Source: Enterobacteria phage XTG1. From it: a stretch of 64,000 bases of DNA. The notes under the pieces were generated by a model that saw only the letters and a list, made by a program, of their open reading frames with translations, made no database searches and was not told the origin of the DNA. The stretch lies in the sequence record KT184316.1; one strand, 5' to 3'. Shown here in pieces: positions 23-64,000 of this stretch. How positions within the stretch are numbered: position 1 is the first letter of the stretch; each line of letters opens with the position of its first letter. The position numbers and the translations under genes are program-made.

Positions 23-97
23 GTTCCAGTAGACAAAACGGTAAAGTCACCACTCTTTCAAAGTGGATATTTGAGGGTTCAAATCCCTTCTGGAACG
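23..97 (+). tRNA. tRNA-Glu (anticodon TTC)
   Basis: Manual cloverleaf: acceptor gttccag/ctggaac, anticodon loop ctttcaa, T-loop ttcaaat, CCA follows. Confidence 0.7.
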
Positions 98-192
98 CCA
101 GTTTTGACAGAAGACCAATTACAGCAAACTTAATCTTATTCATCTGAAGGTAAATCGGACAAAGAAGAGATTTGGTCTGGTCATTAAGAATT

Positions 193-264
193 GCGGGTAT
201 AGAGAAAGGGCGTCTCACATGTCTCATTAGCATGGTATCGGCAGGTTCGACTCCTGCACCCGCC
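193..264 (+). tRNA. tRNA with CAT anticodon (Met or Ile2), slightly atypical
   Basis: Acceptor gcgggt/acccgc, D-stem gaga/tctc, anticodon loop ctcatta, T-arm gcagg-ttcgact-cctgc; position 37 is T. Confidence 0.5.
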
Positions 265-347
265 TCCAATTTTGCAGAAGACCGTTTACAGCAACAAAAT
301 ACTTTTTGCGGATAAAAGAAAAAAAACACGGTCTGGCAATGTATTAA

Positions 348-421
348 GGTTAGGAAGCACATAAGGTATGTGCGGTCGCCTGTTAAGCGAATGGCACAGG
401 GTTCGAATCCCTGACTAACCG
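348..421 (+). tRNA. tRNA-Asn (anticodon GTT)
   Basis: Acceptor ggttagg/actaacc, D-stem gcac/gtgc, anticodon loop ctgttaa, T-arm caggg-ttcgaat-ccctg, CCA encoded. Confidence 0.7.
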
Positions 422-432
422 CCAAATTAAAT

Positions 433-517
433 GTGTCGTTATCCCGTAGATGGTAGCGGTGGGGACTGTAAATCCCTTGTCATTGAGACTCGGTAGGTTC
501 GACTCCTACACGGCACA
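433..517 (+). tRNA. tRNA-Tyr (anticodon GTA), long variable arm
   Basis: 85 nt; anticodon stem-loop gggga-ctgtaaa-tccct; T-arm gtagg-ttcgact-cctac; CCA encoded. Confidence 0.65.
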
Positions 518-526
518 CCAAATAAA

Positions 527-601
527 GGTTATGTAGTTTAATCTGGTTAAAATACTCCCCTGTCACGGGAGATGATGAGGGTTCAAATCCCTTCGTAACC
601 G
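527..601 (+). tRNA. tRNA-Asp (anticodon GTC)
   Basis: Acceptor ggttatg/cgtaacc, anticodon stem-loop ctccc-ctgtcac-gggag, T-arm gaggg-ttcaaat-ccctt, CCA encoded. Confidence 0.7.
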
Positions 602-840
602 CCAAATTATAATAAGTATTTCAAAATGATGTTTGAGAGGGCTATTTTAGCCCCTCCCTTAAAGAGTTCTTACGAGTATTCTTTAAAGGAGCAGAAGACC
701 AAATTCAGCAAGTACGTATGATATTTTCAAGCCAATTTAATTTTGAAAAAATTTATAAAACTTGGTCTGGCTCAACAATTTTACAGAAGACCGTTTACAG
801 CAAAACTTAAACAATCTATTTCTCCGGTAAAGAAAAGGCG

Positions 841-884
841 AAGGTTCGATTCCTTCACTCGGCAGATGTCGAGTTGGTGTAATG
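841..884 (+). pseudogene. tRNA-like fragments in permuted order (3' half directly followed by a 5' half); possible pseudo-tRNA or split/permuted tRNA
   Basis: aaggttcgattcctt-cactcggca (T-arm plus 3' acceptor strand) lies 3 nt upstream of gtcgagt-tg-gtgtaatggtagcac (5' acceptor strand plus D-arm); the two acceptor strands are complementary; no complete cloverleaf found. Confidence 0.3.
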
Positions 885-917
885 GTAGCACTTAAGATGA
901 TAAACAACGGTCTGGTA

Positions 918-1059
918 ATTATCTTTGTAGATAAGTTATTAAGCTTACCTGTGAGTATGCGACCACAAAGGGTGAAAGGGTAAATTCTAGATTTAAACCC
1001 AAAAAGGCACATCGCTACAGACCTTAAGCAAGTCTGGGTAGCTTATCTACAAAGATAAT
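918..1059 (+). ncRNA. Long hairpin element closed by an 18-bp perfect inverted repeat; candidate small structured RNA in the tRNA cluster
   Basis: attatctttgtagataag at 918-935 is the exact reverse complement of cttatctacaaagataat at 1042-1059; 106-nt interior. Confidence 0.35.
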
Positions 1060-1065
1060 TTAATG

Positions 1066-1137
1066 GAAGTGTAGCAGAATGGTGATGCGGCAGACTTTTA
1101 ATCTGACAGGCGATGGGTTCGAATCCCTCCACTTCTA
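1066..1137 (+). tRNA. tRNA-Lys (anticodon TTT)
   Basis: Acceptor ggaagtg/cacttct, anticodon loop cttttaa, T-loop ttcgaat, CCA encoded. Confidence 0.6.
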
Positions 1138-1218
1138 CCAAATTCACCCTTAACTGAGAAACACCTGCGCGGCTGGAAACACCCACTCAACAGTTTCTCT
1201 AACTAGGGTACTTATTCT

Positions 1219-1292
1219 GGTTCAGTCGCAGATAAGGTAATGCAAGGGTCTCATAAGCCCTATGAATGTGGGTTCGATTCCCATCTGAACCT
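1219..1292 (+). tRNA. tRNA-Met (anticodon CAT)
   Basis: Acceptor ggttcag/ctgaacc perfect, anticodon stem-loop agggt-ctcataa-gccct, T-arm gtggg-ttcgatt-cccat. Confidence 0.7.
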
Positions 1293-1296
1293 CCAA

Positions 1297-1369
1297 GCTG
1301 GTATAGTTAAGAAGGTTATAACACTCCCCTGATAAGGGAACATCGGTGGTTCGATTCCACCTACCAGTA
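1297..1369 (+). tRNA. tRNA-Ile (anticodon GAT)
   Basis: Anticodon stem-loop ctccc-ctgataa-ggga, T-arm ggtgg-ttcgatt-ccacc, CCA encoded. Confidence 0.65.
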
Positions 1370-1387
1370 CCAATTTCAATAAAGTTG

Positions 1388-1416
1388 TTGACATTGAGAT
1401 GTGACTACTTTATAGT
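1388..1416 (+). promoter_or_regulatory. Sigma70-like promoter (TTGACA, 17-bp spacer, TATAGT) inside the tRNA cluster
   Basis: ttgaca at 1388-1393, 17-nt spacer, tatagt at 1411-1416. Confidence 0.5.
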
Positions 1417-1618
1417 AACCTTAGTTTTCGTTGCGTAGCGTCTATTTTGCAAATTTAAAATAAATGCAAACGACAATGTTTTTCTGGCAGTAGCTTGATA
1501 GGCTAAACACCAGTGAGGTCTTCCAATCCCTCATCAAAGAATTTGGCGTACTCGCCCACGGTATGATTAATAAGGTGGGCATCTTTAAGGGCTTTCTAAG
1601 AGAGTCTTTAAAGATAAT

Positions 1619-1692
1619 GCACCCTTAGTTCAATTGGATAGAGCAACGGTCTTCTAAATCGTTAGTTACAGGTTCGAATCCTGTAGGGTGTA
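1619..1692 (+). tRNA. tRNA-Arg (anticodon TCT)
   Basis: Acceptor gcaccct/agggtgt, anticodon stem-loop acggt-cttctaa-atcgt, T-arm acagg-ttcgaat-cctgt, CCA encoded. Confidence 0.7.
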
Positions 1693-1837
1693 CCAAATAG
1701 TTAGCAGATTACTTAGACGGCCTTAGTGGGTCTTCCTGTAGGGAGGTGGTCTGTATCTCATGTTTTCCAGAACATGTAAATAATCTGAGAAGAAGCTTGA
1801 CAGTGTTGAGATAACAGGGTAAGCTTCGAATTATAAT

Positions 1838-1917
1838 ATGGGACGATGTTAAGACTCTAAGGCATGAGCAACGGCCTCCAAAACCGTTTCAAAGGGGTTC
1901 AACTCCTCCGTCCCATG
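1838..1917 (+). tRNA. Atypical tRNA-like gene, possibly tRNA-Trp (anticodon CCA) with an extended D region
   Basis: Perfect acceptor atgggac/gtcccat, T-loop ttcaact, GCCA after; loop ctccaaa on stem acgg/ccgt; about 7 extra nt between acceptor and anticodon stem. Confidence 0.4.
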
Positions 1918-1933
1918 CCAAAGTCTTATTAGG

Positions 1934-2021
1934 GGTAGGTAGCGGCTAATGGTAGCCAAACTGTCTTGAAAACAGTTGCCACTGTAGAGATACGGTGAGG
2001 GTTCGACTCCTTTACTTACCG
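1934..2021 (+). tRNA. tRNA-Ser (anticodon TGA), type II with long variable arm
   Basis: 88 nt; acceptor ggtaggt/acttacc; anticodon stem-loop actgt-cttgaaa-acagt; T-arm gaggg-ttcgact-ccttt; flanked by inverted repeat cttattagg/cctaataag. Confidence 0.65.
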
Positions 2022-2176
2022 CCTAATAAGATTTACTCCGTCCATGCTTGTTCGCATTGTCGGTTTATCCCTCGTGTATTGTCGTACACTGTCAAAGCAC
2101 CTAGTAGGTGTCACGGAGAAGAGATAATATCAAGCTCTCCAAAGGTTCTAGTCACCGGATTAAACAAGACTATGCA

Positions 2177-2198
2177 AAGACCTAAATAGGTCTTTTTA
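2177..2198 (+). terminator. Hairpin plus T-run, terminator-like
   Basis: aagacct-aaat-aggtctt followed by ttttt. Confidence 0.35.
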
Positions 2199-2276
2199 GA
2201 GGGCTTCTAAGGTTATTACAGCTTGTTGTGGAGCCTTGTTGCTTAGGTTCTTAGAAGTTCTCTAAAAAGATTTAAT

Positions 2277-2350
2277 GCACCTATAGCCCAACTGGTAGAG
2301 GCAGCAGACTTAGAATCTGCTCAGTGTGAGTTCGAATCTCTCTAGGTGTA
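2277..2350 (+). tRNA. tRNA with TAG anticodon (Leu-type) but short variable arm
   Basis: Acceptor gcaccta/taggtgt, anticodon stem-loop gcaga-cttagaa-tctgc, T-loop ttcgaat, A73, CCA encoded; 74 nt. Confidence 0.55.
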
Positions 2351-2360
2351 CCAAATTAAT

Positions 2361-2433
2361 GCAGGTGTAGCAAAATGGTTATGCGGCTGACTCTTAATCA
2401 GTAAGACGATGGGTTCAATTCCCTCCACCTGTA
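2361..2433 (+). tRNA. tRNA-Lys (anticodon CTT)
   Basis: Acceptor gcaggtg/cacctgt, anticodon loop ctcttaa, T-loop ttcaatt, CCA encoded. Confidence 0.6.
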
Positions 2434-2442
2434 CCAAACAAT

Positions 2443-2515
2443 GGGGTCATAGTTTATATGGTTAAAATTCGAGTTTTGCAAACTTGGGAACCGAGTTCAA
2501 TTCTCGGTGACTCCA
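2443..2515 (+). tRNA. tRNA-Ala (anticodon TGC)
   Basis: Acceptor ggggtca/tgactcc with G3:U70; anticodon stem-loop cgagt-tttgcaa-acttg; T-arm ccgag-ttcaatt-ctcgg; CCA encoded. Confidence 0.65.
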
Positions 2516-2524
2516 CCAATTAGT

Positions 2525-2596
2525 GCATCCATAGTTTAAACGGGAAAATTACAGTCTTCCAAACTGAGGTTGAGGGTTCGATTCCCTCTGGATGCT
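2525..2596 (+). tRNA. tRNA-Gly (anticodon TCC)
   Basis: Acceptor gcatcca/tggatgc perfect, anticodon loop cttccaa, T-arm gaggg-ttcgatt-ccctc, CCA encoded. Confidence 0.7.
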
Positions 2597-2606
2597 CCAA
2601 ATTAAT

Positions 2607-2679
2607 GCTCCTATCGTATAATTGGTTATTACGGTTGCCTTGTAAGCAACTTATCAGGGTTCGAGTCCTTGTGGGAGCA
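2607..2679 (+). tRNA. tRNA-Thr (anticodon TGT)
   Basis: Acceptor gctccta/tgggagc, anticodon stem-loop gttgc-cttgtaa-gcaac, T-arm caggg-ttcgagt-ccttg, CCA encoded. Confidence 0.7.
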
Positions 2680-2778
2680 CCAATTCAGAGGTCAAGTGAA
2701 AGACCGCTTTGAGTCAACTGAAGACCGTAACAAATTCCACGGAGTTGAGTTAGCGGCACAACTCCAGACCTCTTTCAT

Positions 2779-2850
2779 ACTCGCTTAGTTTATATGGTAA
2801 AACATCACCCTTACAAGATGAAGAAAAAGGTTCAAGTCCTTTAGTGAGTA
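2779..2850 (+). tRNA. tRNA-Val (anticodon TAC)
   Basis: Acceptor actcgct/agtgagt, D-stem gttt/aaac, anticodon loop cttacaa (one C-A mismatch in stem), T-arm aaagg-ttcaagt-ccttt, CCA encoded. Confidence 0.6.
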
Positions 2851-2854
2851 CCAT

Positions 2855-2929
2855 GTTCCAGTATCCCAATTGGCAGAGGATGCAAGCTCAAACCTTGTAT
2901 TAGTGACGGTTCGAATCCGTCTTGGAACA
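2855..2929 (+). tRNA. tRNA with CAA anticodon (Leu-type) but short variable arm
   Basis: Acceptor gttccag/ttggaac, D-loop aattggcaga, anticodon stem-loop gcaag-ctcaaac-cttgt, T-arm gacgg-ttcgaat-ccgtc, A73, CCA encoded. Confidence 0.55.
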
Positions 2930-2937
2930 CCAATTTT

Positions 2938-3010
2938 GCAGGATTAGTTCAAATGGAAAGAGCAACAGTCTACGAAGCTGTTAATAGGGGTTCGAATCCC
3001 TTATCCTGCG
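2938..3010 (+). tRNA. tRNA-Arg (anticodon ACG)
   Basis: Acceptor gcaggat/atcctgc perfect, anticodon stem-loop acagt-ctacgaa-gctgt, T-arm agggg-ttcgaat-ccctt, CCA encoded. Confidence 0.7.
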
Positions 3011-3030
3011 CCAGATAAAAAGGTGATACT

Positions 3031-3273
3031 ATGCAAACATTAACAGTAGTTGAACATGAAAACTGTGAGAGTATTGAGTTTGTCAGGGTCATTGGTGTTG
3101 AACACCACATTTTCTTAAAAGTGGGATACTTATGTGACCCCGCTAGAGTAGAAAGATTTATACGTGATTGTTTTGGTGGTAGACATCTGAAGAGTGTTAT
3201 TTTTGAGACAGTTTTACCAGAAGGTTTAGAAACGAATAATAACATTTACCTCCTTACGAGGATTAGACAATGA
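3031..3273 (+). CDS. Hypothetical protein (80 aa) embedded in tRNA cluster
   Basis: ORF with RBS aaggtga 7 nt upstream of ATG; stop overlaps next start (ATGA). Confidence 0.5.
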   Translation: MQTLTVVEHENCESIEFVRVIGVEHHIFLKVGYLCDPARVERFIRDCFGGRHLKSVIFETVLPEGLETNNNIYLLTRIRQ

Positions 3274-3827
3274 GATACTTAAAGTATGCTTCATGGATTT
3301 TCTTAGCTTTGTTAGAGCCATTTGCAGCAATCTTAGCAGTTATCTTAGCACCTTTTGTAGTTCCATTCTACAGTGAGAAGAAAGGACACTTACCTTTCGG
3401 GTTCAGATGGATGGAGACATATGACAACCCAATTGATGGTGATGAAGGTCACTTTAAAAGATGGGCTAATATTAGATGGATTGGTAAACTAGGCGTCTAC
3501 ATGCAAAGAGTCGGATGGCTCTGGAGAAACAAAGCTTATAACTTCTCTTACCATGTATTAGGAAGAGATGTAAAAGATGTTACTAAGTGGAAAGGTAATA
3601 TCAACGTAAGTTCTGACCCTGAAGATAATCAGACTGGTTATCTCCTAATGTGGAACAGTAATGCTTGGGGATTATTCGCCTTTATCCCATCAATTAAAGT
3701 CTTTGGTAAACAGTTTTACTGGAGAATTTATATTGGATGGAAACTAAAAAGTGTTGTCCCAGAAGAAAGAGCATTCTCAAGGGAAAGAGTTATGTTGGCA
3801 TTCTTTATTCATCCACTGAGAAAGTAA
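3270..3827 (+). CDS. Hypothetical membrane protein (185 aa)
   Basis: RBS gagga upstream; N-terminal hydrophobic stretch WIFLALLEPFAAILAVILAPFVVPF; translationally coupled to upstream ORF. Confidence 0.55.
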   Translation: MRYLKYASWIFLALLEPFAAILAVILAPFVVPFYSEKKGHLPFGFRWMETYDNPIDGDEGHFKRWANIRWIGKLGVYMQRVGWLWRNKAYNFSYHVLGRDVKDVTKWKGNINVSSDPEDNQTGYLLMWNSNAWGLFAFIPSIKVFGKQFYWRIYIGWKLKSVVPEERAFSRERVMLAFFIHPLRK

Positions 3828-3835
3828 AGATTTAA

Positions 3836-3908
3836 AGGGGATTAGTTTACAAGGTTAAAACCTCGGTCTTTGAAATCGAAGAAGTTGGTTCAATTCCAAC
3901 ATCCCCCG
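3836..3908 (+). tRNA. tRNA-Gln (anticodon TTG)
   Basis: Anticodon stem-loop tcggt-ctttgaa-atcga, T-arm gttgg-ttcaatt-ccaac, CCA encoded. Confidence 0.65.
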
Positions 3909-3913
3909 CCAAT

Positions 3914-3989
3914 GCTCCATTACTCCAATTGGCAGAGAGGCCAGACTTAAAATCTGTGTTATGTATCGGTTCGAATCCGATATGGAGTA
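3914..3989 (+). tRNA. tRNA with TAA anticodon (Leu-type) but short variable arm
   Basis: Acceptor gctccat/atggagt, D-loop aattggcaga (paralog of 2855-2929), anticodon loop cttaaaa, T-arm atcgg-ttcgaat-ccgat, A73, CCA encoded. Confidence 0.55.
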
Positions 3990-3997
3990 CCAAATTT

Positions 3998-4070
3998 AGC
4001 GGTATAGCATAACTGGCAATGCAACAGTCTCTGAAGCTGTCCTATTAAGGTTCAAATCCTTATGCCGCTG
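3998..4070 (+). tRNA. tRNA-Gln (anticodon CTG)
   Basis: Acceptor agcggta/tgccgct, anticodon stem-loop acagt-ctctgaa-gctgt, T-arm taagg-ttcaaat-cctta, CCA encoded. Confidence 0.6.
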
Positions 4071-4104
4071 CCACTTCTAAGGATTCTTACGAGAGTCCTT
4101 AAAT

Positions 4105-4177
4105 GTGGCCTTATCATAAATGGTAATGACCCATGCTGTGAACATGGTCTATACGGGTTCAAATCCCGTAGGTCACC
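4105..4177 (+). tRNA. tRNA-His (anticodon GTG)
   Basis: Acceptor gtggcct/aggtcac, anticodon stem-loop ccatg-ctgtgaa-catgg, T-arm acggg-ttcaaat-cccgt, CCA encoded. Confidence 0.7.
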
Positions 4178-4185
4178 CCAATTTA

Positions 4186-4260
4186 TAGTCCAAGTAGCTT
4201 ATATGGTTAAAGCGCGTGTCTGAAAAACATGAGAAGAGGGTTCAAATCCCACTGGACTAC
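4186..4260 (+). tRNA. tRNA-Phe (anticodon GAA)
   Basis: Acceptor tagtcca/tggacta perfect, anticodon stem-loop cgtgt-ctgaaaa-acatg, T-loop ttcaaat. Confidence 0.65.
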
Positions 4261-4278
4261 CAATTTCAAAGGTGCTTA

Positions 4279-5013
4279 ATGAAAGAGATGACAGAACAAG
4301 GTAAGGAGATTTTTAATCTCTTAAAAACCGGTAGAGGGTTTTCTAATCCCCTTATTACTGGTGCAGCAGTTCTCGGTGGAACCGTAGCTGCCTCTACATC
4401 ACTTGTAAGTTCTATTAGCTCTGTAACAGACCCTACAATGAAGGAGAAACTTGTTGCTGCTGGACTTACAACAGTCCTTCTAAACAGCTTTACAACAAGC
4501 CTTACAAGCACTACAGCGACTACTAAGACCTTAACAGACTATGGTCAAAAGTCTATTGATGAGTTTTCATCACGTATGCAGGTAGCAAAGGGGTATTCCA
4601 ATGTTATGGGTGCAGCAGGGGAACAAGTTGGCTGTACACCGTTTAGTGGTATTATGGGCGTTGCTACAGAATATGGTCAAAAAGCTATTGACACAATTAA
4701 CAGTGCACTAGATGTCGTTAATGATGTATTAAGTGACTTACAAGATGCTATTGACAAAGGTCTTGATACTATTTCTGATTTAGCTAACCAAGCTGTTAGT
4801 AAGATTAATGAAGGTATTTCGAAGATTACAGCTTATGCAGATGAAGTTGTGCAGATGATTGAAGAAGAAGCTGCTCTTATTGCAGAGTACCTTAAAACGA
4901 ATATCAATGGGTTCTTAGCAGGTATCTTACCAGACTGGTTTGATGATGCTTGTAAAACTGGTGTGATTGACACTATTGCAACACCAGAAATGAAGAACGC
5001 ATTACAGAAATAA
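4279..5013 (+). CDS. Hypothetical protein (244 aa, Ser/Thr/Ala-rich); start refined to ATG 4279
   Basis: Track ORF 4216-5013 begins inside tRNA-Phe; in-frame ATG at 4279 has RBS aaagg upstream (MKEMTEQ...). Confidence 0.55.
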   Translation: MKEMTEQGKEIFNLLKTGRGFSNPLITGAAVLGGTVAASTSLVSSISSVTDPTMKEKLVAAGLTTVLLNSFTTSLTSTTATTKTLTDYGQKSIDEFSSRMQVAKGYSNVMGAAGEQVGCTPFSGIMGVATEYGQKAIDTINSALDVVNDVLSDLQDAIDKGLDTISDLANQAVSKINEGISKITAYADEVVQMIEEEAALIAEYLKTNINGFLAGILPDWFDDACKTGVIDTIATPEMKNALQK

Positions 5014-5014
5014 T

Positions 5015-5104
5015 GGAAGATTAACCCTAAAAGGTAAGGGAGCAGTTTGCTAAACTGCCAGTAGCTGAGAAATCGGTGTACCAGTTCAAGTCTGGTATCT
5101 TCCT
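5015..5104 (+). tRNA. tRNA-Ser (anticodon GCT), type II with long variable arm
   Basis: 90 nt; acceptor ggaagat/atcttcc perfect; anticodon stem-loop gcagt-ttgctaa-actgc; T-arm accag-ttcaagt-ctggt; CCA encoded. Confidence 0.7.
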
Positions 5105-5111
5105 CCAATTT

Positions 5112-5184
5112 GAATCCGTGACAGAAATGGCTATGTGCCTGTCTGCAAAACAGGTTTATAAGGGTTCGAGTCCCTTCGGATTCT
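5112..5184 (+). tRNA. tRNA-Cys (anticodon GCA)
   Basis: Acceptor gaatccg/cggattc perfect, anticodon stem-loop cctgt-ctgcaaa-acagg, T-arm aaggg-ttcgagt-ccctt, CCA encoded. Confidence 0.7.
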
Positions 5185-5349
5185 CCAAGTTATTTTACTC
5201 TCTCTCAATTAAAATAATAATAATGCCCTGCTATAAGTATTCTTCCTTTCGCTACCGAAGAGTATTTTTAGACAGGGCTTTTTTACAGAGCTATACTTTA
5301 TAAGAAGACTTATACAGTATGTCTCTGACGTACATTGTGGTTTCTCCTT

Positions 5350-53516: not shown

Positions 53517-55661
53517 ATGAACAAAGTACAGATTATTAAAAAGAACGGCTCACTTGAAGAACCTGATATCAAAAAAGTTTTAGCAGCAGTAGCTAAGTCA
53601 GCTAACAGGGTTGGATATAAAGAACTTCCACCAGATGTTACCCAAGCTCTTGAGTCAGCATTTATGAGGATTCTGGTAAAGTCCACTAAGCAGAATAATT
53701 TGCTAATTTCTGTAAATGATATTCACAGTATTGTTGAGGGTGCTTTGGCAGAAGTCAATCACGAGATTTATGAGTCTTACTCAACATATAGAAATTACCG
53801 TAAAGAAGTTGCTCAAAATTGGGATGAGCTTTACCAGAAGACCAAAGAGACACTCTTCTTAGGTGACCGAGAAAACGCTAATTTTGACAGCAGTTTAATT
53901 TCTACAAAAGGTTCAATTATTCGTGGTTATCTGACTAAAGAAATCTTTAAACAGTACCACTTAACACCAGAGGAACTTGAAGCCATTGAAAAAGGGTTTA
54001 TCTATATCCATGATTTAAGAGACCTAATTTTTGGTGGTATCAACTGTTGCCTGTTTGACATTGGTAAAGTCCTGAAAGGTGGCTTTGAAATGTCTGGCAT
54101 CGAATATTGTGAACCGAAGTCTGTACTGTCAGCCTTACAGGTTATTGGTGACGTAGTACTTTCAGCAACTGCACAGCAATTTGGTGGTTTTACTTTAGCA
54201 GAGATTGATAAGGTACTTGTACCGTATGCTAAGAAGTCTCTACGCTATCATGCTGAGAAAGCATCATCTTATGGTATTCCTAAAGAGCATTACCACAATT
54301 ATGTAACGGAGCAGTTACAAATTGAATTAACTCAAGGTTTTCAGTCACTTGAAATGAAACTGAACACTGTACCTTGTAGCCGTGGTGATTTCGCATTCAC
54401 AACTTTAACATTTGGTTTACTTGACTCAGACATGTCTAATGAAGACAACCGGCTACAATACATGATTGCAAACACCATTCTTGATGTTCGCATGAATGGA
54501 CAAGGTAAGAGTAAGAAGCCTGTTGTATTCCCTAAACTGGTTTATATTCATGACCAGAAGAGACACGATGAGAATATCTGTCAAGGCCAACTGTACAGTA
54601 AAGCTATTGAGTGTTGCTCTAAAGCAATGTATCCAGATTTCTTAAGCGTATCTGGTCATGGTGCTGTAGCAGAGGCTTTTGAGCGTTCTGGCAAGGTAAT
54701 TTCACCGATGGGTTGCAGAGCTTTCTTATCCCCATATCTTAACGAGAATGGAGAAGAGTTCTACGTTGGTCGTGCTAACATTGGTGCTGTGTCTTTGAAC
54801 TTACCAATGATTTACCAGTGTTCTAAAGAGAATGGTTTAGATTTCTGGAAAGAGCTTGACAAGTACCTAGATATGATTCGCAGCTTCCACAAGAAACGCT
54901 ACGAAATGATTGCTAATATGCCAGCAAGCTCTAACCCTCTTGCATTCACACAAGGTGGTCTGTACAAAGGGACCAAGAAACCTACTGACAAGGTTGGTTG
55001 GGATATCGTGAAGTCTTTCACAGCTTCTTTTGGGGTTACTGCGCTTGATGAGTTATCTGTTCTTGCTGAAGGTAAACGGCTGCATGAAGTTGGGAGCTAT
55101 AGTTTTGCATACGATGTTCTGGCATACATTAACATGAAAACTGAAGAGTTTAAAAATGAAGATGGCTTCTTATATGCTGTCTATGGTACTCCAGCAGAAT
55201 CACTTTGTGGAACTCAGCTAAAACAGTTCAGAGAAATGTTTGGTGTTATCAAAGGTGTTTCTGACAAGGAATACTTTACAAACAGTTTCCATATGAATGT
55301 TGCAGCAGACATCTCACCATTTGAGAAGCAGGACTTAGAAGAGCCATTCTTCCATATCTGTAGAGGTGGCAGAATCCAGTATGTCAGGGTAGCTAACCCA
55401 GAAAACTTACCAGCACTTAAAAGCTGTATTACCAGAGGGATGTTGAAAGGTTTCTATCAGGGACTTAACTTTGACTTAGCAATCTGTGAGCATTGTGGTA
55501 ACAGACCAAAATCAGATGTTGAAGAGTGTGAAGTTTGTCACTCACATGATATCTCTGTGATTAACAGGGTGTGTGGGTATCTTGGATGGACTAAGATTAA
55601 AGGTGAATCCCGAATGAACGATGCAAAAATCGCTGAGATTCGTGACAGAGTTTCTATGTAA
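53517..55661 (+). CDS. nrdD: Anaerobic ribonucleoside-triphosphate reductase
   Basis: 714 aa; C-terminal zinc site CEHCG...CEVCHS and glycyl-radical motif RVCGYLG. Confidence 0.85.
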   Translation: MNKVQIIKKNGSLEEPDIKKVLAAVAKSANRVGYKELPPDVTQALESAFMRILVKSTKQNNLLISVNDIHSIVEGALAEVNHEIYESYSTYRNYRKEVAQNWDELYQKTKETLFLGDRENANFDSSLISTKGSIIRGYLTKEIFKQYHLTPEELEAIEKGFIYIHDLRDLIFGGINCCLFDIGKVLKGGFEMSGIEYCEPKSVLSALQVIGDVVLSATAQQFGGFTLAEIDKVLVPYAKKSLRYHAEKASSYGIPKEHYHNYVTEQLQIELTQGFQSLEMKLNTVPCSRGDFAFTTLTFGLLDSDMSNEDNRLQYMIANTILDVRMNGQGKSKKPVVFPKLVYIHDQKRHDENICQGQLYSKAIECCSKAMYPDFLSVSGHGAVAEAFERSGKVISPMGCRAFLSPYLNENGEEFYVGRANIGAVSLNLPMIYQCSKENGLDFWKELDKYLDMIRSFHKKRYEMIANMPASSNPLAFTQGGLYKGTKKPTDKVGWDIVKSFTASFGVTALDELSVLAEGKRLHEVGSYSFAYDVLAYINMKTEEFKNEDGFLYAVYGTPAESLCGTQLKQFREMFGVIKGVSDKEYFTNSFHMNVAADISPFEKQDLEEPFFHICRGGRIQYVRVANPENLPALKSCITRGMLKGFYQGLNFDLAICEHCGNRPKSDVEECEVCHSHDISVINRVCGYLGWTKIKGESRMNDAKIAEIRDRVSM

Positions 55662-58472: not shown

Positions 58473-58743
58473 AGAAAAGTGGGAGATTTTACCATTAGTC
58501 AGTGAAGGAGGTAATGGTTGTGAAATGTACATGATACGTGGTCATGTTCCAGAGCCAATTGCACTTGAGATGGTAAACAACTTTACAGATGGTTCTTACA
58601 AAGACTTAGGCGAACCAACTGTCAAGCAACAATGGGTTAAACCTGTACCAGACAGCACAGGTAACTGTAGTGTACTTTATCACGTTGTAGACCCTGCAAA
58701 ATGCAAATCTGCAATGGCAGTAACAAACGTAACTTTTGATTGA
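58465..58743 (+). CDS. Hypothetical protein (92 aa)
   Basis: Coupled ORF directly upstream of Prs-like gene. Confidence 0.45.
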   Translation: MAREKWEILPLVSEGGNGCEMYMIRGHVPEPIALEMVNNFTDGSYKDLGEPTVKQQWVKPVPDSTGNCSVLYHVVDPAKCKSAMAVTNVTFD

Positions 58744-58754
58744 GAGAGAAAACT

Positions 58755-59636
58755 ATGAAAACATCTATCCGTGTTACAGTTCATTCACCAACTAAAGGAA
58801 CTCATGAAGAAGAGTTTAACATCATCCAATTTCCTTCTGGTGAGATTGGTGGACACTTTTCGCCAGAGTTTGTTGATTTCACTGCTTATGCAGCATCATC
58901 CATCAACAATGTGATTATGATTGTAAAAGGTTATGATAAGGATACATTGTTTGCTGTGGCACTTGCTAAAGAAGCAATTGATGATTTAATTCCTCATGAT
59001 TATGCTTTAAAGACTGTCATCTTTTACTACTTACCAAATGCACGTTATGACCGTCACATGTTTAAAGGCGACGCAGCAGCTTTAAAGGTTTTTGCTAAAC
59101 AGATTAATGCAATGGGGTTTGGCGCAGTCTGTGCAGTTGACCCTCACAGCTATGTACCAGATAACCTGTTTAACTGCTTCCAGAGTATTCCTCAAAAGGA
59201 GATTGCAGTCCACTATGCAAATGACCCTCTAATTGATTACTTAGTAGCCCCAGATGCAGGTGCTTCTAAGAAGATTGCAGAGACTGCTAAAGAGGTGGAT
59301 AAACCATATATCACAATGTCTAAGGTGCGAAATCTTAAGACTGGAGAAATCACTGGTATGCGAATCCTTGACGATGTTGATTTGACAGATAAAACTGTCA
59401 TGATTCTGGATGATATTTGTGATGGAGGTCGAACCTTCATAGAAGCAGCTAAACATCTTCGTGAAGCAGGTGCAAAACGTGTTGAGCTTTATGTAACACA
59501 TGGTATCTTCTCTAAAGGTGTTGAAAACCTTCTTGACAATGGTATCGACCATATTTACACTACAAACTCTTTAGGCGAAGCTAAAGACCGTGGCTTAACA
59601 CATTATGGTCAAGTTACTGTAGCAAACCTTGATTGA
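58755..59636 (+). CDS. Ribose-phosphate pyrophosphokinase (PRPP synthetase) family protein; candidate ADP-ribose pyrophosphokinase of an NAD+ reconstitution module
   Basis: Prs-family blocks FPSGEI, NARYDRH, VDPHS, VAPDAGA, VMILDDICDGGRT ... AKRVELYVTHGIFS; start set at ATG 58755 with RBS gagagag. Confidence 0.7.
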   Translation: MKTSIRVTVHSPTKGTHEEEFNIIQFPSGEIGGHFSPEFVDFTAYAASSINNVIMIVKGYDKDTLFAVALAKEAIDDLIPHDYALKTVIFYYLPNARYDRHMFKGDAAALKVFAKQINAMGFGAVCAVDPHSYVPDNLFNCFQSIPQKEIAVHYANDPLIDYLVAPDAGASKKIAETAKEVDKPYITMSKVRNLKTGEITGMRILDDVDLTDKTVMILDDICDGGRTFIEAAKHLREAGAKRVELYVTHGIFSKGVENLLDNGIDHIYTTNSLGEAKDRGLTHYGQVTVANLD

Positions 59637-59681: not shown

Positions 59682-61463
59682 ATGACTAAATCACTTTATG
59701 CAGTACCAGCAGGTTTAAACGCAGATGCTTACAAATCTGGTCATGTTTACCAGTACCCTAGTGCAACAGAATATTTGATGTTCAACCTGACACCACGTAG
59801 CGACAAATGGTTTAACAGTCCATTAGCAATTGATGGTGTAGTCGCTTTTGGTATTCAACGTTTTGTTAAAGATTACTTGATAGACCACTGGAACGCTACG
59901 TTCTTTGAACGTGACAAAAAAGAAGCAATTGACGAAATCTTAGAAGTCATGAATGGTGTTCTGGGCAAAGATGCTATCGGTCGAGAGCATTGGGAAGCAC
60001 TCCACGATTTAGGTTATCTACCAGTTGAAGTATATGCTGTAGAAGAAGGTACAGTTGTCCCGATGCGTGTCCCAATGATTGTCTTCCAGAACACTGTTTC
60101 AGGCTTCCATTGGGTAGCAGGTTATCTGGAAGATGCTTTCTCTGCTGAGATTTGGAAGGCTTGCACCATTGCGACTATTGCATTGCACTACAAACGCATC
60201 TGTAAGAAGTGGGCTGACCTTACTTGTGACAATGACTTACATTTACCTTATCAGTGCCATGATTTTGCTATGCGTGGTATGTCCGGCTTTACTGATGACG
60301 CATTTAACGCTGTAGGTCACTTAACCAGCTTTAAAGGGACTGATAGCTTCCCTGCTGTATACACGGCTAAACGAATCTATGGACAGTCCTACCCAATCTC
60401 TGATATTGGTAGTTCTGTACCAGCCACTGAGCACTCTGTAATGTGTGCAAACATTGCTTGGGAAGGTGGTAATGAGTTGATTGAAGAAGAAAGACGCTTT
60501 AAAGGTGAGTTACAAACCTTCCGTCGTTTCTTAACAGAAACTTACCCAACAGGTATTGCAAGCATTGTTTCAGATACTTATAACTTCTGGAGAACTGTGT
60601 CAGAAATCTTACCAGCACTTCGTAAAGAAATTATGGAACGTGATGGCAAACTGGTAATTCGCCCTGACTCTGGAGACCCTGTACATATTGTCACAGGTTA
60701 TAAAGCAATCCACTTAGAATGTGCTAAGAAGGCTTATTACGAGCACCTAAGCAAGCTGGAAGCCAGTGACACAATGTTGAATGCTGTTCTGAACATGAAG
60801 CTTGAGAACATCAACTATGGTATTGCTGGATGGCTACTGTCAGAAGGCTACGAGATGGTTGTTGACAGAGAAGACTTTGAAGTTGCTGATACAGTGATGT
60901 TGAAAAATGCTTATATGGTTGGTTCTGCAAACGTTGTAACACGTCCTGTAGCTGAGATTGATGGAGCTATTAAGACACTGTACAACATCTTTGGGGGAAC
61001 TATTAACTCTAAAGGTTTTAAAGTACTGGATGAGCATATTGGACTTATTTATGGCGACTCTATCACGTTGGAACGTGCAAATGAAATACTGAAGCGTTTG
61101 TATGAAATGGGTTTTGCAAGCTCTAACGTAGTGTTTGGTGTAGGTTCTTACACTTACCAGTACATGACTCGTGACACCTTTGCATTTGCTGTCAAAGCAA
61201 CTCTTGCAAGCATTGGTGGTAAAGAGATTATGCTTGCAAAAGACCCTAAAACAGATAGTGGTGTTAAGAAGTCTGCTTTTGGTGGTGTAGCACCTATGTG
61301 GGATGGTGAAAATCTGAAAGCTGTAGATGGCTATGGGTTCCAGAGCTTTGCAGATGCACTTGAACATCCAGCTTGTGCTTTACGTCTAGTCTTTAGCGAC
61401 TCTGAGCAGTTCGGCTACACAACTCTTGGTGATATTCGAAATAATATTGACAAGCAGCTTTAA
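59682..61463 (+). CDS. Nicotinamide phosphoribosyltransferase (NAMPT) family protein; candidate nicotinamide ADP-ribose transferase
   Basis: N-terminal NADAYKSGHVYQYP matches the NAMPT TDSYK..H..QYP signature; 593 aa; RBS gagag; directly downstream of Prs-like gene. Confidence 0.75.
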   Translation: MTKSLYAVPAGLNADAYKSGHVYQYPSATEYLMFNLTPRSDKWFNSPLAIDGVVAFGIQRFVKDYLIDHWNATFFERDKKEAIDEILEVMNGVLGKDAIGREHWEALHDLGYLPVEVYAVEEGTVVPMRVPMIVFQNTVSGFHWVAGYLEDAFSAEIWKACTIATIALHYKRICKKWADLTCDNDLHLPYQCHDFAMRGMSGFTDDAFNAVGHLTSFKGTDSFPAVYTAKRIYGQSYPISDIGSSVPATEHSVMCANIAWEGGNELIEEERRFKGELQTFRRFLTETYPTGIASIVSDTYNFWRTVSEILPALRKEIMERDGKLVIRPDSGDPVHIVTGYKAIHLECAKKAYYEHLSKLEASDTMLNAVLNMKLENINYGIAGWLLSEGYEMVVDREDFEVADTVMLKNAYMVGSANVVTRPVAEIDGAIKTLYNIFGGTINSKGFKVLDEHIGLIYGDSITLERANEILKRLYEMGFASSNVVFGVGSYTYQYMTRDTFAFAVKATLASIGGKEIMLAKDPKTDSGVKKSAFGGVAPMWDGENLKAVDGYGFQSFADALEHPACALRLVFSDSEQFGYTTLGDIRNNIDKQL

Positions 61464-61477
61464 AAGTATATGATAAG

Positions 61478-61499
61478 AGGCTCCTACGGGAGCCTTTTT
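61478..61499 (+). terminator. Rho-independent terminator (UACG tetraloop) closing the Prs-like/NAMPT-like pair
   Basis: aggctcc-tacg-ggagcc followed by ttttt. Confidence 0.65.
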
Positions 61500-61516
61500 A
61501 ATTTCTGGAGAAGATT

Positions 61517-61852
61517 ATGAAAATCAAAGAGATGAACATCAACATCGTCTTAGAGGAACGTTGGGAGAACATCAAGAAACCTGAAAATGGTCATAAGTTC
61601 CTTAACAAAATTTTAGTAGCAGCTAAAGAAGAACTGACTGGTAAGATTGCAGCAGCAATCACAATAAAGGTCTGTGTAAAAGGTCTTCCAGACAATCACC
61701 AATTTGCACTTGACGAGTTTAAAGAAAGCTTCTACAATCCAAATAAACAGATGCTTGAAAGTAACTTTGCAGTATCTACAAGTATCGTTCATGACAGAAG
61801 CTTTATCCTTTACAAAAACATGAGAGGTGAGTCATGCAAGCATATTGGATAG
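61517..61852 (+). CDS. Hypothetical protein (111 aa)
   Basis: Intact ORF. Confidence 0.45.
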   Translation: MKIKEMNINIVLEERWENIKKPENGHKFLNKILVAAKEELTGKIAAAITIKVCVKGLPDNHQFALDEFKESFYNPNKQMLESNFAVSTSIVHDRSFILYKNMRGESCKHIG

Positions 61853-62010
61853 AAATTTTACTGTCACTTGGTAGTGTAGCAATATTTGTTTGCCTTCTTT
61901 GTAAGTACTTTGCAGAACACAAAAAGTGTGACTACTGTAACGGAGAAGGGTATACAAGAGCAGGTTGTTGCCCTATTTGTGGTGGTTCTGGTAAAATGTT
62001 TAATAAGTAA
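61834..62010 (+). CDS. Small membrane protein with C-terminal CxxC..CxxC (58 aa)
   Basis: ATG 61834; hydrophobic N-terminus and CDYCNGEG...CCPICGGSG; below the ORF-track length cutoff. Confidence 0.35.
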   Translation: MQAYWIEILLSLGSVAIFVCLLCKYFAEHKKCDYCNGEGYTRAGCCPICGGSGKMFNK

Positions 62011-62039
62011 TTTAACAGTAAACTAAGAGGAAAGTATTA

Positions 62040-64000
62040 TGCGCATGGTAAACGACCACGCAGAAGTGATTAAGAGTTCAACTTCTTTAGAGACGTCTCA
62101 AGCACAGATTACAATGACACCTGAGATGTTCAGCCTTTTGAGTTCTGGTGTATATACCTTTAAAGAAAGGGCAGTGATTCGTGAACTGTCATGTAACGCA
62201 GTAGATGCTCAGAAAGAAGCTGGAAAAGAGAACATCCCATTCCATGTGCATTTACCTACTCGTTTTGAGCCTTACTTCGAAGTTCGTGATTTTGGAACTG
62301 GATTGACTCATGATAAAGTTATGAGTTTGTACCTAAACTATGGAGCTTCTACGAAGAATGACTCTAATGACTACATTGGTGCAATGGGTATCGGCTCAAA
62401 GTCACCATTTGCAATTGCTCAGTCATTCACAGTATCGAGCTATGTTGATGGTGTTGTTAATAAGTACTCTGTTTATCTTGAGAATGGTATCCCTCAAGTA
62501 ACTAAGCTGACAACTAACCCAACAAAAGAACCTAATGGTTTAGCTGTACGTGTGGCAGTTGCTGACCACCGTATCTCAAAGTTCTTTGAAGAAGCTGGGA
62601 ATGTGTACTCATACTTCACTGTAAAACCAGAAAGTAATATTGAGTACGACGATGTATTAGCAGATATGAACGTCATTGCTCGTGAAGAAGGTGTTTATGA
62701 TGCCATGATTCATAAGCAAAGCTGGCGTTCTAGTGGTAACAAGACAGAGTTTAATGTGGTGATGGGTAACATTGCCTACCCTGTTAATATGGAAGCATTA
62801 CTTGGCGATGATTTCTTCAAAGTATTGCCAGAATTTTTCCGTAGGAGTGTAGACCTTGTAAACATCTACATGCCTATTGGTTCAGTTGCTATTGCAGCTT
62901 CTCGTGAAGCATTACAGATGAATGACACGACAAAAAATGTTATCATTGAGGCTACTAAAAAGATAACTGAAGCCATTACAAAGGATGTTATCAAGAAAGT
63001 TAATAGCCAACCTACACTCATGGATGCTGCACAGGCTTATGCTGAGTTACGTTTGAACTCACGAGAGATGTTTAATGCTGTGTGTCCAAAGCTAGAGTGG
63101 GGAGGCGTTAAGCTTGATTCTCTGGAAGAAGAATTGCTAAACATTCGTCGTGGGATTATCTACGCAGAAGACGGCTCAGTCATTTATGAACGTGACGGTA
63201 AAGGTAATATTAAGGTTGATAGGAACGGAAACAACATCCCTAAAGTAGATTACCTTTATGACCCAGTTGCTTATGTCAAGTTCAACTCTTTAGAGAGTAA
63301 GATTCGTGCAACAGCACTTTCCTACACTCAAGAGGCAAGTATGTTCAATATCTTTGGTGCAATGCGTAAAAGCCAAATTGAACAGTTTTTGTTCGTGATT
63401 AATGACCGTCGCAATAAAAACGGTACTGAGAAGACTGTAGGACGAAATCAAATCTTGCGTGGTGCATGTCGAGACTACGCTAACGAGTCAGGCCTGTTCC
63501 ACAGATACAATGGTATTGTGTTTGTATTCTCTAATGAGAAAGAGTTAGATGATTTAATCAATCTGCACAAACTTGATAAAAGCTTGTTAAAGATTGTGAA
63601 AATGTCTGATAAGGAGCACCATTATCAGCGTAAAGAAGCTGTGAGGGGCGTTGTAAAACTCTGGAAAGCTGTTCCAGCAGAAGCTGTAGCTTCATACAAA
63701 GAGGTATCAGAAGACCTAGACACAATTGAAGAGCCTCAGCTTTATATTAAGGCAGTAGGCGACACAGTTGATGGTAGATGTTTTTGCTCATCTCCAGAAG
63801 ATGTAGCTAAGTCAGTTGCTAATGTTACAGGTAAGACAGTCTATGTTTTCCGAAAAGCAAATTGGAAAAAGATACCAGAAGATTGGATTGAAGTAGATGA
63901 GAAACTCTTGAACGACAGCTTAACTGATGTTCACTGGATTAACCATAACAGATATATGACGCGTATCTATATGAATGGTGTCCTTGACCTTACAAGCAGT
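62040..64000 (+). CDS. GHKL-type ATPase domain protein, possibly rIIA-like; 3' end beyond window
   Basis: Bergerat-fold motifs ELSCNAVDA and VRDFGTGL, then GAMGIGSKS; open frame to window end; absent from ORF track, presumably because it has no stop inside the window. Confidence 0.45.

Follow-up and report, generated by a model that had tools for sequence, protein, structure and literature searches.

Does the long open frame at the end of the analysed DNA of Enterobacteria phage XTG1 (KT184316.1; 64,000 nucleotides, hereafter the window) encode a RIIA protein, and what might this protein do for the phage? The initial annotation had described a frame beginning at position 62040 and running off the window end. 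It had noted three Bergerat-fold motifs and favoured a rIIA-like product that acts in exclusion or anti-exclusion, with a topoisomerase or a MORC-like ATPase as the alternative.

The open frame and its identity as rIIA

A long open frame reaching the window end was confirmed, while the position of its start had to be corrected. The frame read from 62040 is full of stops, whereas the one read from 62039 stays open for 654 codons, as far as base 64000. Its ATG occupies positions 62039-62041 on the plus strand. An in-frame TAA is located upstream of it at 62024-62026, and a Shine-Dalgarno sequence, GAGG, was read from the sequence at 62027..62030 of the same strand, 8 nt before the ATG; the 20 nt 5′ of the start codon are TAAACTAAGAGGAAAGTATT. 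With the composition of the window (39% G+C), the chance of 654 codons staying open is ~2e-20. A promoter-like site at 62012-62040 was set aside, as it overlaps the start codon. The frame was missing from the ORF list because the tool that made the list skips ORFs running off an end, just as the initial annotation had supposed.

The identity of the frame was determined by profile and pairwise comparisons. In the PHROGs database, the 654-aa fragment matched phrog_612, named 'RIIA lysis inhibitor', with an E value of 1.4e-182; of the 725 positions of this profile, the match covered 1-604. The same profile was matched by a full-length orthologue of 788 aa (E 2e-189, positions 1-716) and, end to end, by T4 RIIA (NP_049616.1; E 9e-250, positions 1-724). 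Megablast assigned the window to the genus Felixounavirus (Ounavirinae, FelixO1-like), with matches to 239 phage records, the best of which was Escherichia phage fjerdesal (97.6% nucleotide identity). The fragment and the annotated 788-aa rIIA product of fjerdesal (QHR70264.1) are identical in 651 of 654 residues (99.5%), and 640 residues (97.9%) are identical in Bas63/JohannRWettstein (bas63_0084; genome MZ501086). Both alignments were free of gaps, and the proteins thus differ by few substitutions only. Since rIIA of the nearest relatives has 788 codons, the window carries codons 1-654 of about 788 (62039..64000, plus strand), ~83% of the gene, which is cut by the window end and for this part lacks a stop codon.

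The relationship to T4 RIIA was clearest in the N-terminal part. BLASTP of the full-length orthologue aligned aa 24-317 at 32% identity (E 7e-37), and hhalign with a profile of 66 homologues yielded a probability of 100% (E 1.8e-57) over aa 13-336. The hhalign alignment did not extend past the N-terminal region, and only the N-terminal ~40% of the protein aligns directly. For the C-terminal ~460 residues, no pairwise alignment with T4 RIIA was obtained by BLASTP or hhalign. Used alone, the C-terminal halves of the orthologue and of T4 RIIA fall on one common stretch of phrog_612 (E 7e-42 and 3e-84, respectively), and this shared PHROG profile is the only link between them. T4 RIIA, which has 725 aa as against 788 aa in Felixounavirus, resembles the protein of the window in its PHROG, in the GHKL motifs and the SRE loop described below, in the N-terminal ~320 aa (the 32% identical part) and in being paired with rIIB. 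The rIIA-like reading of the initial annotation is therefore upheld by the phrog_612 profile, by the alignment with T4 RIIA, by near-identical rIIA genes of Felixounavirus and by rIIB, which directly follows rIIA in the relatives. Already in the 2010 Felix O1 genome paper, gene 1 was named rIIA (PMC3185647). The gene is known and widely annotated, and this copy adds nothing new to it. The value of the assignment lies in the annotation: a real and well-known gene was absent from the ORF track, and this is now corrected.

Downstream rIIB and the surroundings of rIIA

The initial annotation had suggested looking for a rIIB-like gene downstream. Such a gene is present in the relatives, and that of XTG1 itself lies past the window. 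In fjerdesal, typing phage 1 (TP1) and Bas63, an annotated rIIB of ~369 codons begins ~80 bp after rIIA; its product matched the phrog_609 RIIB profile (E 1.4e-89) and T4 RIIB (37% identity, E 4e-61). A query composed of the rIIA 3′-end and rIIB was found contiguous in 210 phage records. In Pectobacterium phage Wc4-1 (43% identity) and in a metagenomic contig (29% identity), rIIB also stands directly after rIIA. From these relatives we infer the last ~134 codons of rIIA and the rIIB gene of this genome, the latter being expected to start about 480 bp beyond the window end.

The phrog_609 'RIIB' profile has 1055 positions, of which ~20-310 are matched by rIIA N-termini and ~750-1049 by rIIB. 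As the profile covers both genes, natural RIIA-RIIB fusion proteins are implied, and these in turn lend Rosetta-stone support to a physical partnership of the two proteins.

Upstream of rIIA, the plus strand encodes a ribose-phosphate pyrophosphokinase (Prs, 58740-59636) and a nicotinamide phosphoribosyltransferase (NAMPT, 59682-61463). The order Prs, NAMPT, small ORFs, rIIA and rIIB is the same in Felixounavirus relatives such as fjerdesal and Bas63. The surroundings of rIIA in T4 are different, with topoisomerase gene 60 in place of the NAD+ salvage genes found here. The two upstream genes correspond to g79 and g80 of Bas63, which have been reported to counter Sir2-HerA through NAD+ reconstitution. 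Since counter-defence genes thus adjoin rIIA, the end of the window can be regarded as an anti-defence neighbourhood. The linkage of Prs/NAMPT with the rII genes is also kept in Pectobacterium phage Wc4-1 and in the metagenomic contig.

Two putative transcription signals were detected on the plus strand at the end of NAMPT. A promoter-like site of the sigma-70 type, close to the consensus (TTGACA-16-TATGAT, 11/12), at 61447-61474 is abutted by a terminator-like hairpin with a 10-bp stem (61475-61498), which lies just past the NAMPT stop codon. The segment 61447-61498 likely marks where one transcription unit gives way to the next, ahead of the rII cluster. The unit that follows would probably comprise the phrog_4262 gene, the gene of a 58-aa membrane protein, rIIA and, in the relatives, rIIB, and rIIA and rIIB are probably co-transcribed.

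The 58-aa ORF (61834-62010, plus strand; phrog_3931) lies directly upstream of rIIA. Its product carries a single hydrophobic helix at the N-terminus and, after it, two perfect CxxCxGxG repeats of the DnaJ type (CDYCNGEG and CPICGGSG), for which the Pfam model DnaJ_CXXCXGXG gave a weak match (E 0.08). A 52-aa protein of the same layout and in the same position is encoded by Pectobacterium phage Wc4-1 (L009, 3821-3979; CSRCQGTG and CPDCQGTG). T4 rIIA.1 was compared as a candidate counterpart of this small membrane protein and turned out to be unrelated. It is possible that the CxxCxGxG protein is a third partner of the rII module.

Apart from rIIA, some further differences to the relatives were found. 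A gene of ~346 bp for a hypothetical protein of 114 aa (fjerdesal_60/bas63_0081), which in the relatives is situated between NAMPT and the phrog_4262 gene, is absent here at 61516-61519. The anaerobic ribonucleotide reductase gene nrdD (ORF 53517-55661) is uninterrupted at about 54714, whereas at the matching point nrdD of Bas63 contains an insertion of ~740 bp with the homing endonuclease gene bas63_0068. At its start, the window carries a cluster of 25 tRNA genes (23-5187, plus strand) that resembles the tRNA block of Bas63. This number roughly agrees with published counts for Felix O1 and wV8, which are 22-23 tRNAs.

Counter-defence as the probable role of the rII genes

The rII genes are a classic locus, and their published genetics on RexAB and QatABCD hosts is clear. 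Among the phages studied is SUSP1, a member of Ounavirinae. T4 can do without rIIA and rIIB as long as RexAB is absent (bioRxiv 10.1101/2025.11.20.689424; PMC8594841). When RIIA or RIIB was knocked down in a set of five phages, which includes SUSP1 and represents four subfamilies and five genera, plating dropped on RexAB hosts only, and hosts without Rex showed no effect (PMC11879866). Deletion of g84 (rIIA) or g85 (rIIB) of Bas63 reduced plating on qatABCD hosts 10^4-10^5-fold, and the defect was rescued by complementation (PMC11482910). It has also been reported that bacterial gasdermin systems can sense RIIB as a trigger (PMC10312443). For Bas63 g85/g84, a homology of '>80%' to T4 RIIA/B has been stated (PMC11482910); this value was not matched by the identities to T4 measured here, which amounted to 32% for RIIA (N-terminal part only) and 37% for RIIB.

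From this genetics, which was obtained with near-identical or related orthologues, we concluded that rIIA encodes the predicted ATPase of a counter-defence module made up of two proteins. RIIA and RIIB together would let the phage grow in hosts with abortive-infection systems such as RexAB and QatABCD.

The name of the profile suggests another primary role, namely the control of lysis timing and not anti-defence. The database entry ('RIIA lysis inhibitor') and the PHROG category ('lysis') point in this direction, the gene was named after the classical r (rapid-lysis) plaque phenotype of T4, and in the relatives rIIB is followed within a few genes by a putative lysin and the spanins. It counts against this role that lysis inhibition proper in T4 depends on RI and the holin T. 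Moreover, the RIIA/RIIB knock-downs in the five phages remained without effect when the hosts lacked Rex (PMC11879866), and the phenotype of Bas63 is specific to one defence system (PMC11482910). Lysis timing as the primary role of RIIA is thus judged improbable. We regard the frame as the 5′ 83% of the rIIA gene of a Felixounavirus, a FelixO1-like myovirus of E. coli; its product is an orthologue of T4 RIIA and the ATPase partner in the counter-defence module with rIIB. To this reading we assign a probability of roughly 0.93.

The ATPase module and its relationship to Hsp90

All three Bergerat-fold motifs listed in the initial annotation are present, and their key residues are conserved, as scored over 71 diverse homologues including T4. 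They reside within a Bergerat-fold (GHKL) ATP-binding domain of about aa 24-200 (62108..62638, plus strand, as for all features of the gene). Motif I or N box (ELSCNAVDA, aa 49-57, 62183..62209) contains the invariant residues E49, N53 and D56. In motif II or G1 box (VRDFGTGL, aa 82-89, 62282..62305), no homologue deviates at D84 or G86, and at least 90% of them share G88, while G114, G117, G119 and K121 are invariant in motif III, the G2 box or ATP lid hinge (GAMGIGSKS, aa 114-122, 62378..62404). By analogy with the GHKL family, E49 is presumably the catalytic base, N53 a Mg2+ ligand and D84 a contact to adenine. The ATP-binding domain is followed by a transducer-like (ribosomal S5 domain-2-like) second domain of about aa 200-295 (62636..62923). 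It harbors the ASREAL loop (S288-R289-E290-x-L292, 62897..62914), a candidate gamma-phosphate-sensing arginine loop, in which R289 and E290 were found in 71 of 71 homologues and S288 and L292 in 69 of 71. The first part of a lineage-variable C-terminal region (aa 330-654, 63026..64000) extends to the window end. This layout agrees with the description of RIIA as an N-terminal GHKL domain joined to a variable C-terminus (PMC7824862).

An AlphaFold2 model of a full-length, 98%-identical orthologue was confident (pLDDT 87.5); no solved structure corresponds to the C-terminal half. No transmembrane segment was detected in RIIA or RIIB, although the RII proteins of T4 have been described as associated with the membrane; any association of RIIA/RIIB with the membrane would therefore be peripheral.

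With Pfam, the fragment itself gave matches below threshold only, to HATPase_c (E 0.087), DotY and DUF5659, and Pfam alone would thus have missed the identity of rIIA. Pfam HATPase models matched 18 (HATPase_c_3, weak) and 7 of the 66 homologues. PADLOC matches to TmtA, PDC-M08B and Csm4 were dropped, as they were weak or limited to the ATPase core. The papers searched contained no biochemical data that would show an RIIA to be active as an ATPase.

Searches at the level of structures and profiles consistently led to Hsp90. The best 50 Foldseek matches in the PDB were all of the Hsp90 family, with TRAP1 at the top (E 3.8e-17). Phmmer with the full-length orthologue gave no match among the PDB sequences; the 66-homologue profile was needed, and it retrieved only TRAP1 and HtpG (E 4e-5). 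With E. coli HtpG, hhalign reached a probability of 95%, the alignment not extending past the N-terminal region. The best partial matches in NCBIfam were 'HSP90 family protein' (E 1.8e-11) and the sacsin ATP-binding domain. In addition, the SRExLQ loop is common to HtpG, where it reads NVSREILQ (R336); the T4 RIIA sequence is APSREALS. In Hsp90, the loop around R336 provides the middle-domain arginine that contacts the gamma-phosphate of ATP, and by this likeness the R289 loop may serve in gamma-phosphate sensing. The rIIA product of the window hence exhibits both the N-domain signature and the middle-domain catalytic arginine loop of the Hsp90 family (HtpG, TRAP1, GRP94), whose members are the nearest cellular relatives of its ATPase module. 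It is not itself a member of the family: it scored 43 bits against a curated cut-off of 455, gave no full-length match with complete middle and C-terminal dimerisation domains, and no Hsp90 C-domain was detected in it.

These data also bear on the alternatives raised by the initial annotation. MORC, MutL and type II topoisomerases belong to the same GHL class, but their TOPRIM, MutL C-terminal and CW/coiled-coil domains are absent from rIIA. Since TOPRIM, DNA-gate, MutL C-terminal and MORC modules are all lacking, MORC has the fold class in common with rIIA and nothing further, and its S5-like domain likewise resembles that of rIIA at the fold level only. A MORC/paraMORC-like GHKL ATPase, working as a stand-alone effector of exclusion or defence and not in rII counter-defence, is very unlikely: no HATPase_c_3 match was obtained on the rIIA protein at E<=1, the sequence profiles indicate Hsp90 and not MORC, and the orthology to T4 RIIA and the obligatory pairing with rIIB speak against it. 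The published phenotypes are moreover those of counter-defence and not of defence; for Bas63 it has already been reported that rIIA works together with rIIB and matters only on defence-carrying hosts. A phage type II topoisomerase, of which the frame would encode the ATPase subunit (GyrB/T4 gp39-like), is regarded as refuted. Pfam revealed neither TOPRIM nor DNA-gate domains, which the initial annotation had named as evidence against rIIA, in the 654-aa fragment, the 788-aa orthologue or the 66 homologues. The orthologue stops after residue 788, the next gene being rIIB, no topoisomerase family appeared among the PHROG, NCBIfam or PDB-sequence matches, Hsp90 ranked above topoisomerases in every search, and the transducer loop is of the Hsp90-type SRE and not the topoisomerase signature.

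For the RIIA ATPase as partner of RIIB, the fold and the conservation of the motifs suggest that binding and hydrolysis of ATP would power a clamp cycle like that of Hsp90 and MutL, and that the active site may be completed in this cycle by the arginine of the transducer domain. Such a cycle would be needed for the anti-defence activity, and the variable, lineage-specific C-terminus of ~460 residues may set the specificity for a partner or target. Tentatively, and with considerable doubt, RIIA could be seen as more than a generic GHKL protein, namely as a phage-encoded side line within the Hsp90 branch of the GHL ATPases, because the Hsp90 N-domain signature and the invariant SRE loop coincide, in Ounavirinae, with a CxxCxGxG protein encoded upstream.

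If this were true, RIIA could act at the membrane as a chaperone-like clamp powered by ATP, which together with RIIB might remodel or sequester components of depolarising abortive-infection systems. The 70-year-old question of the rII mechanism would thereby gain a testable handle.
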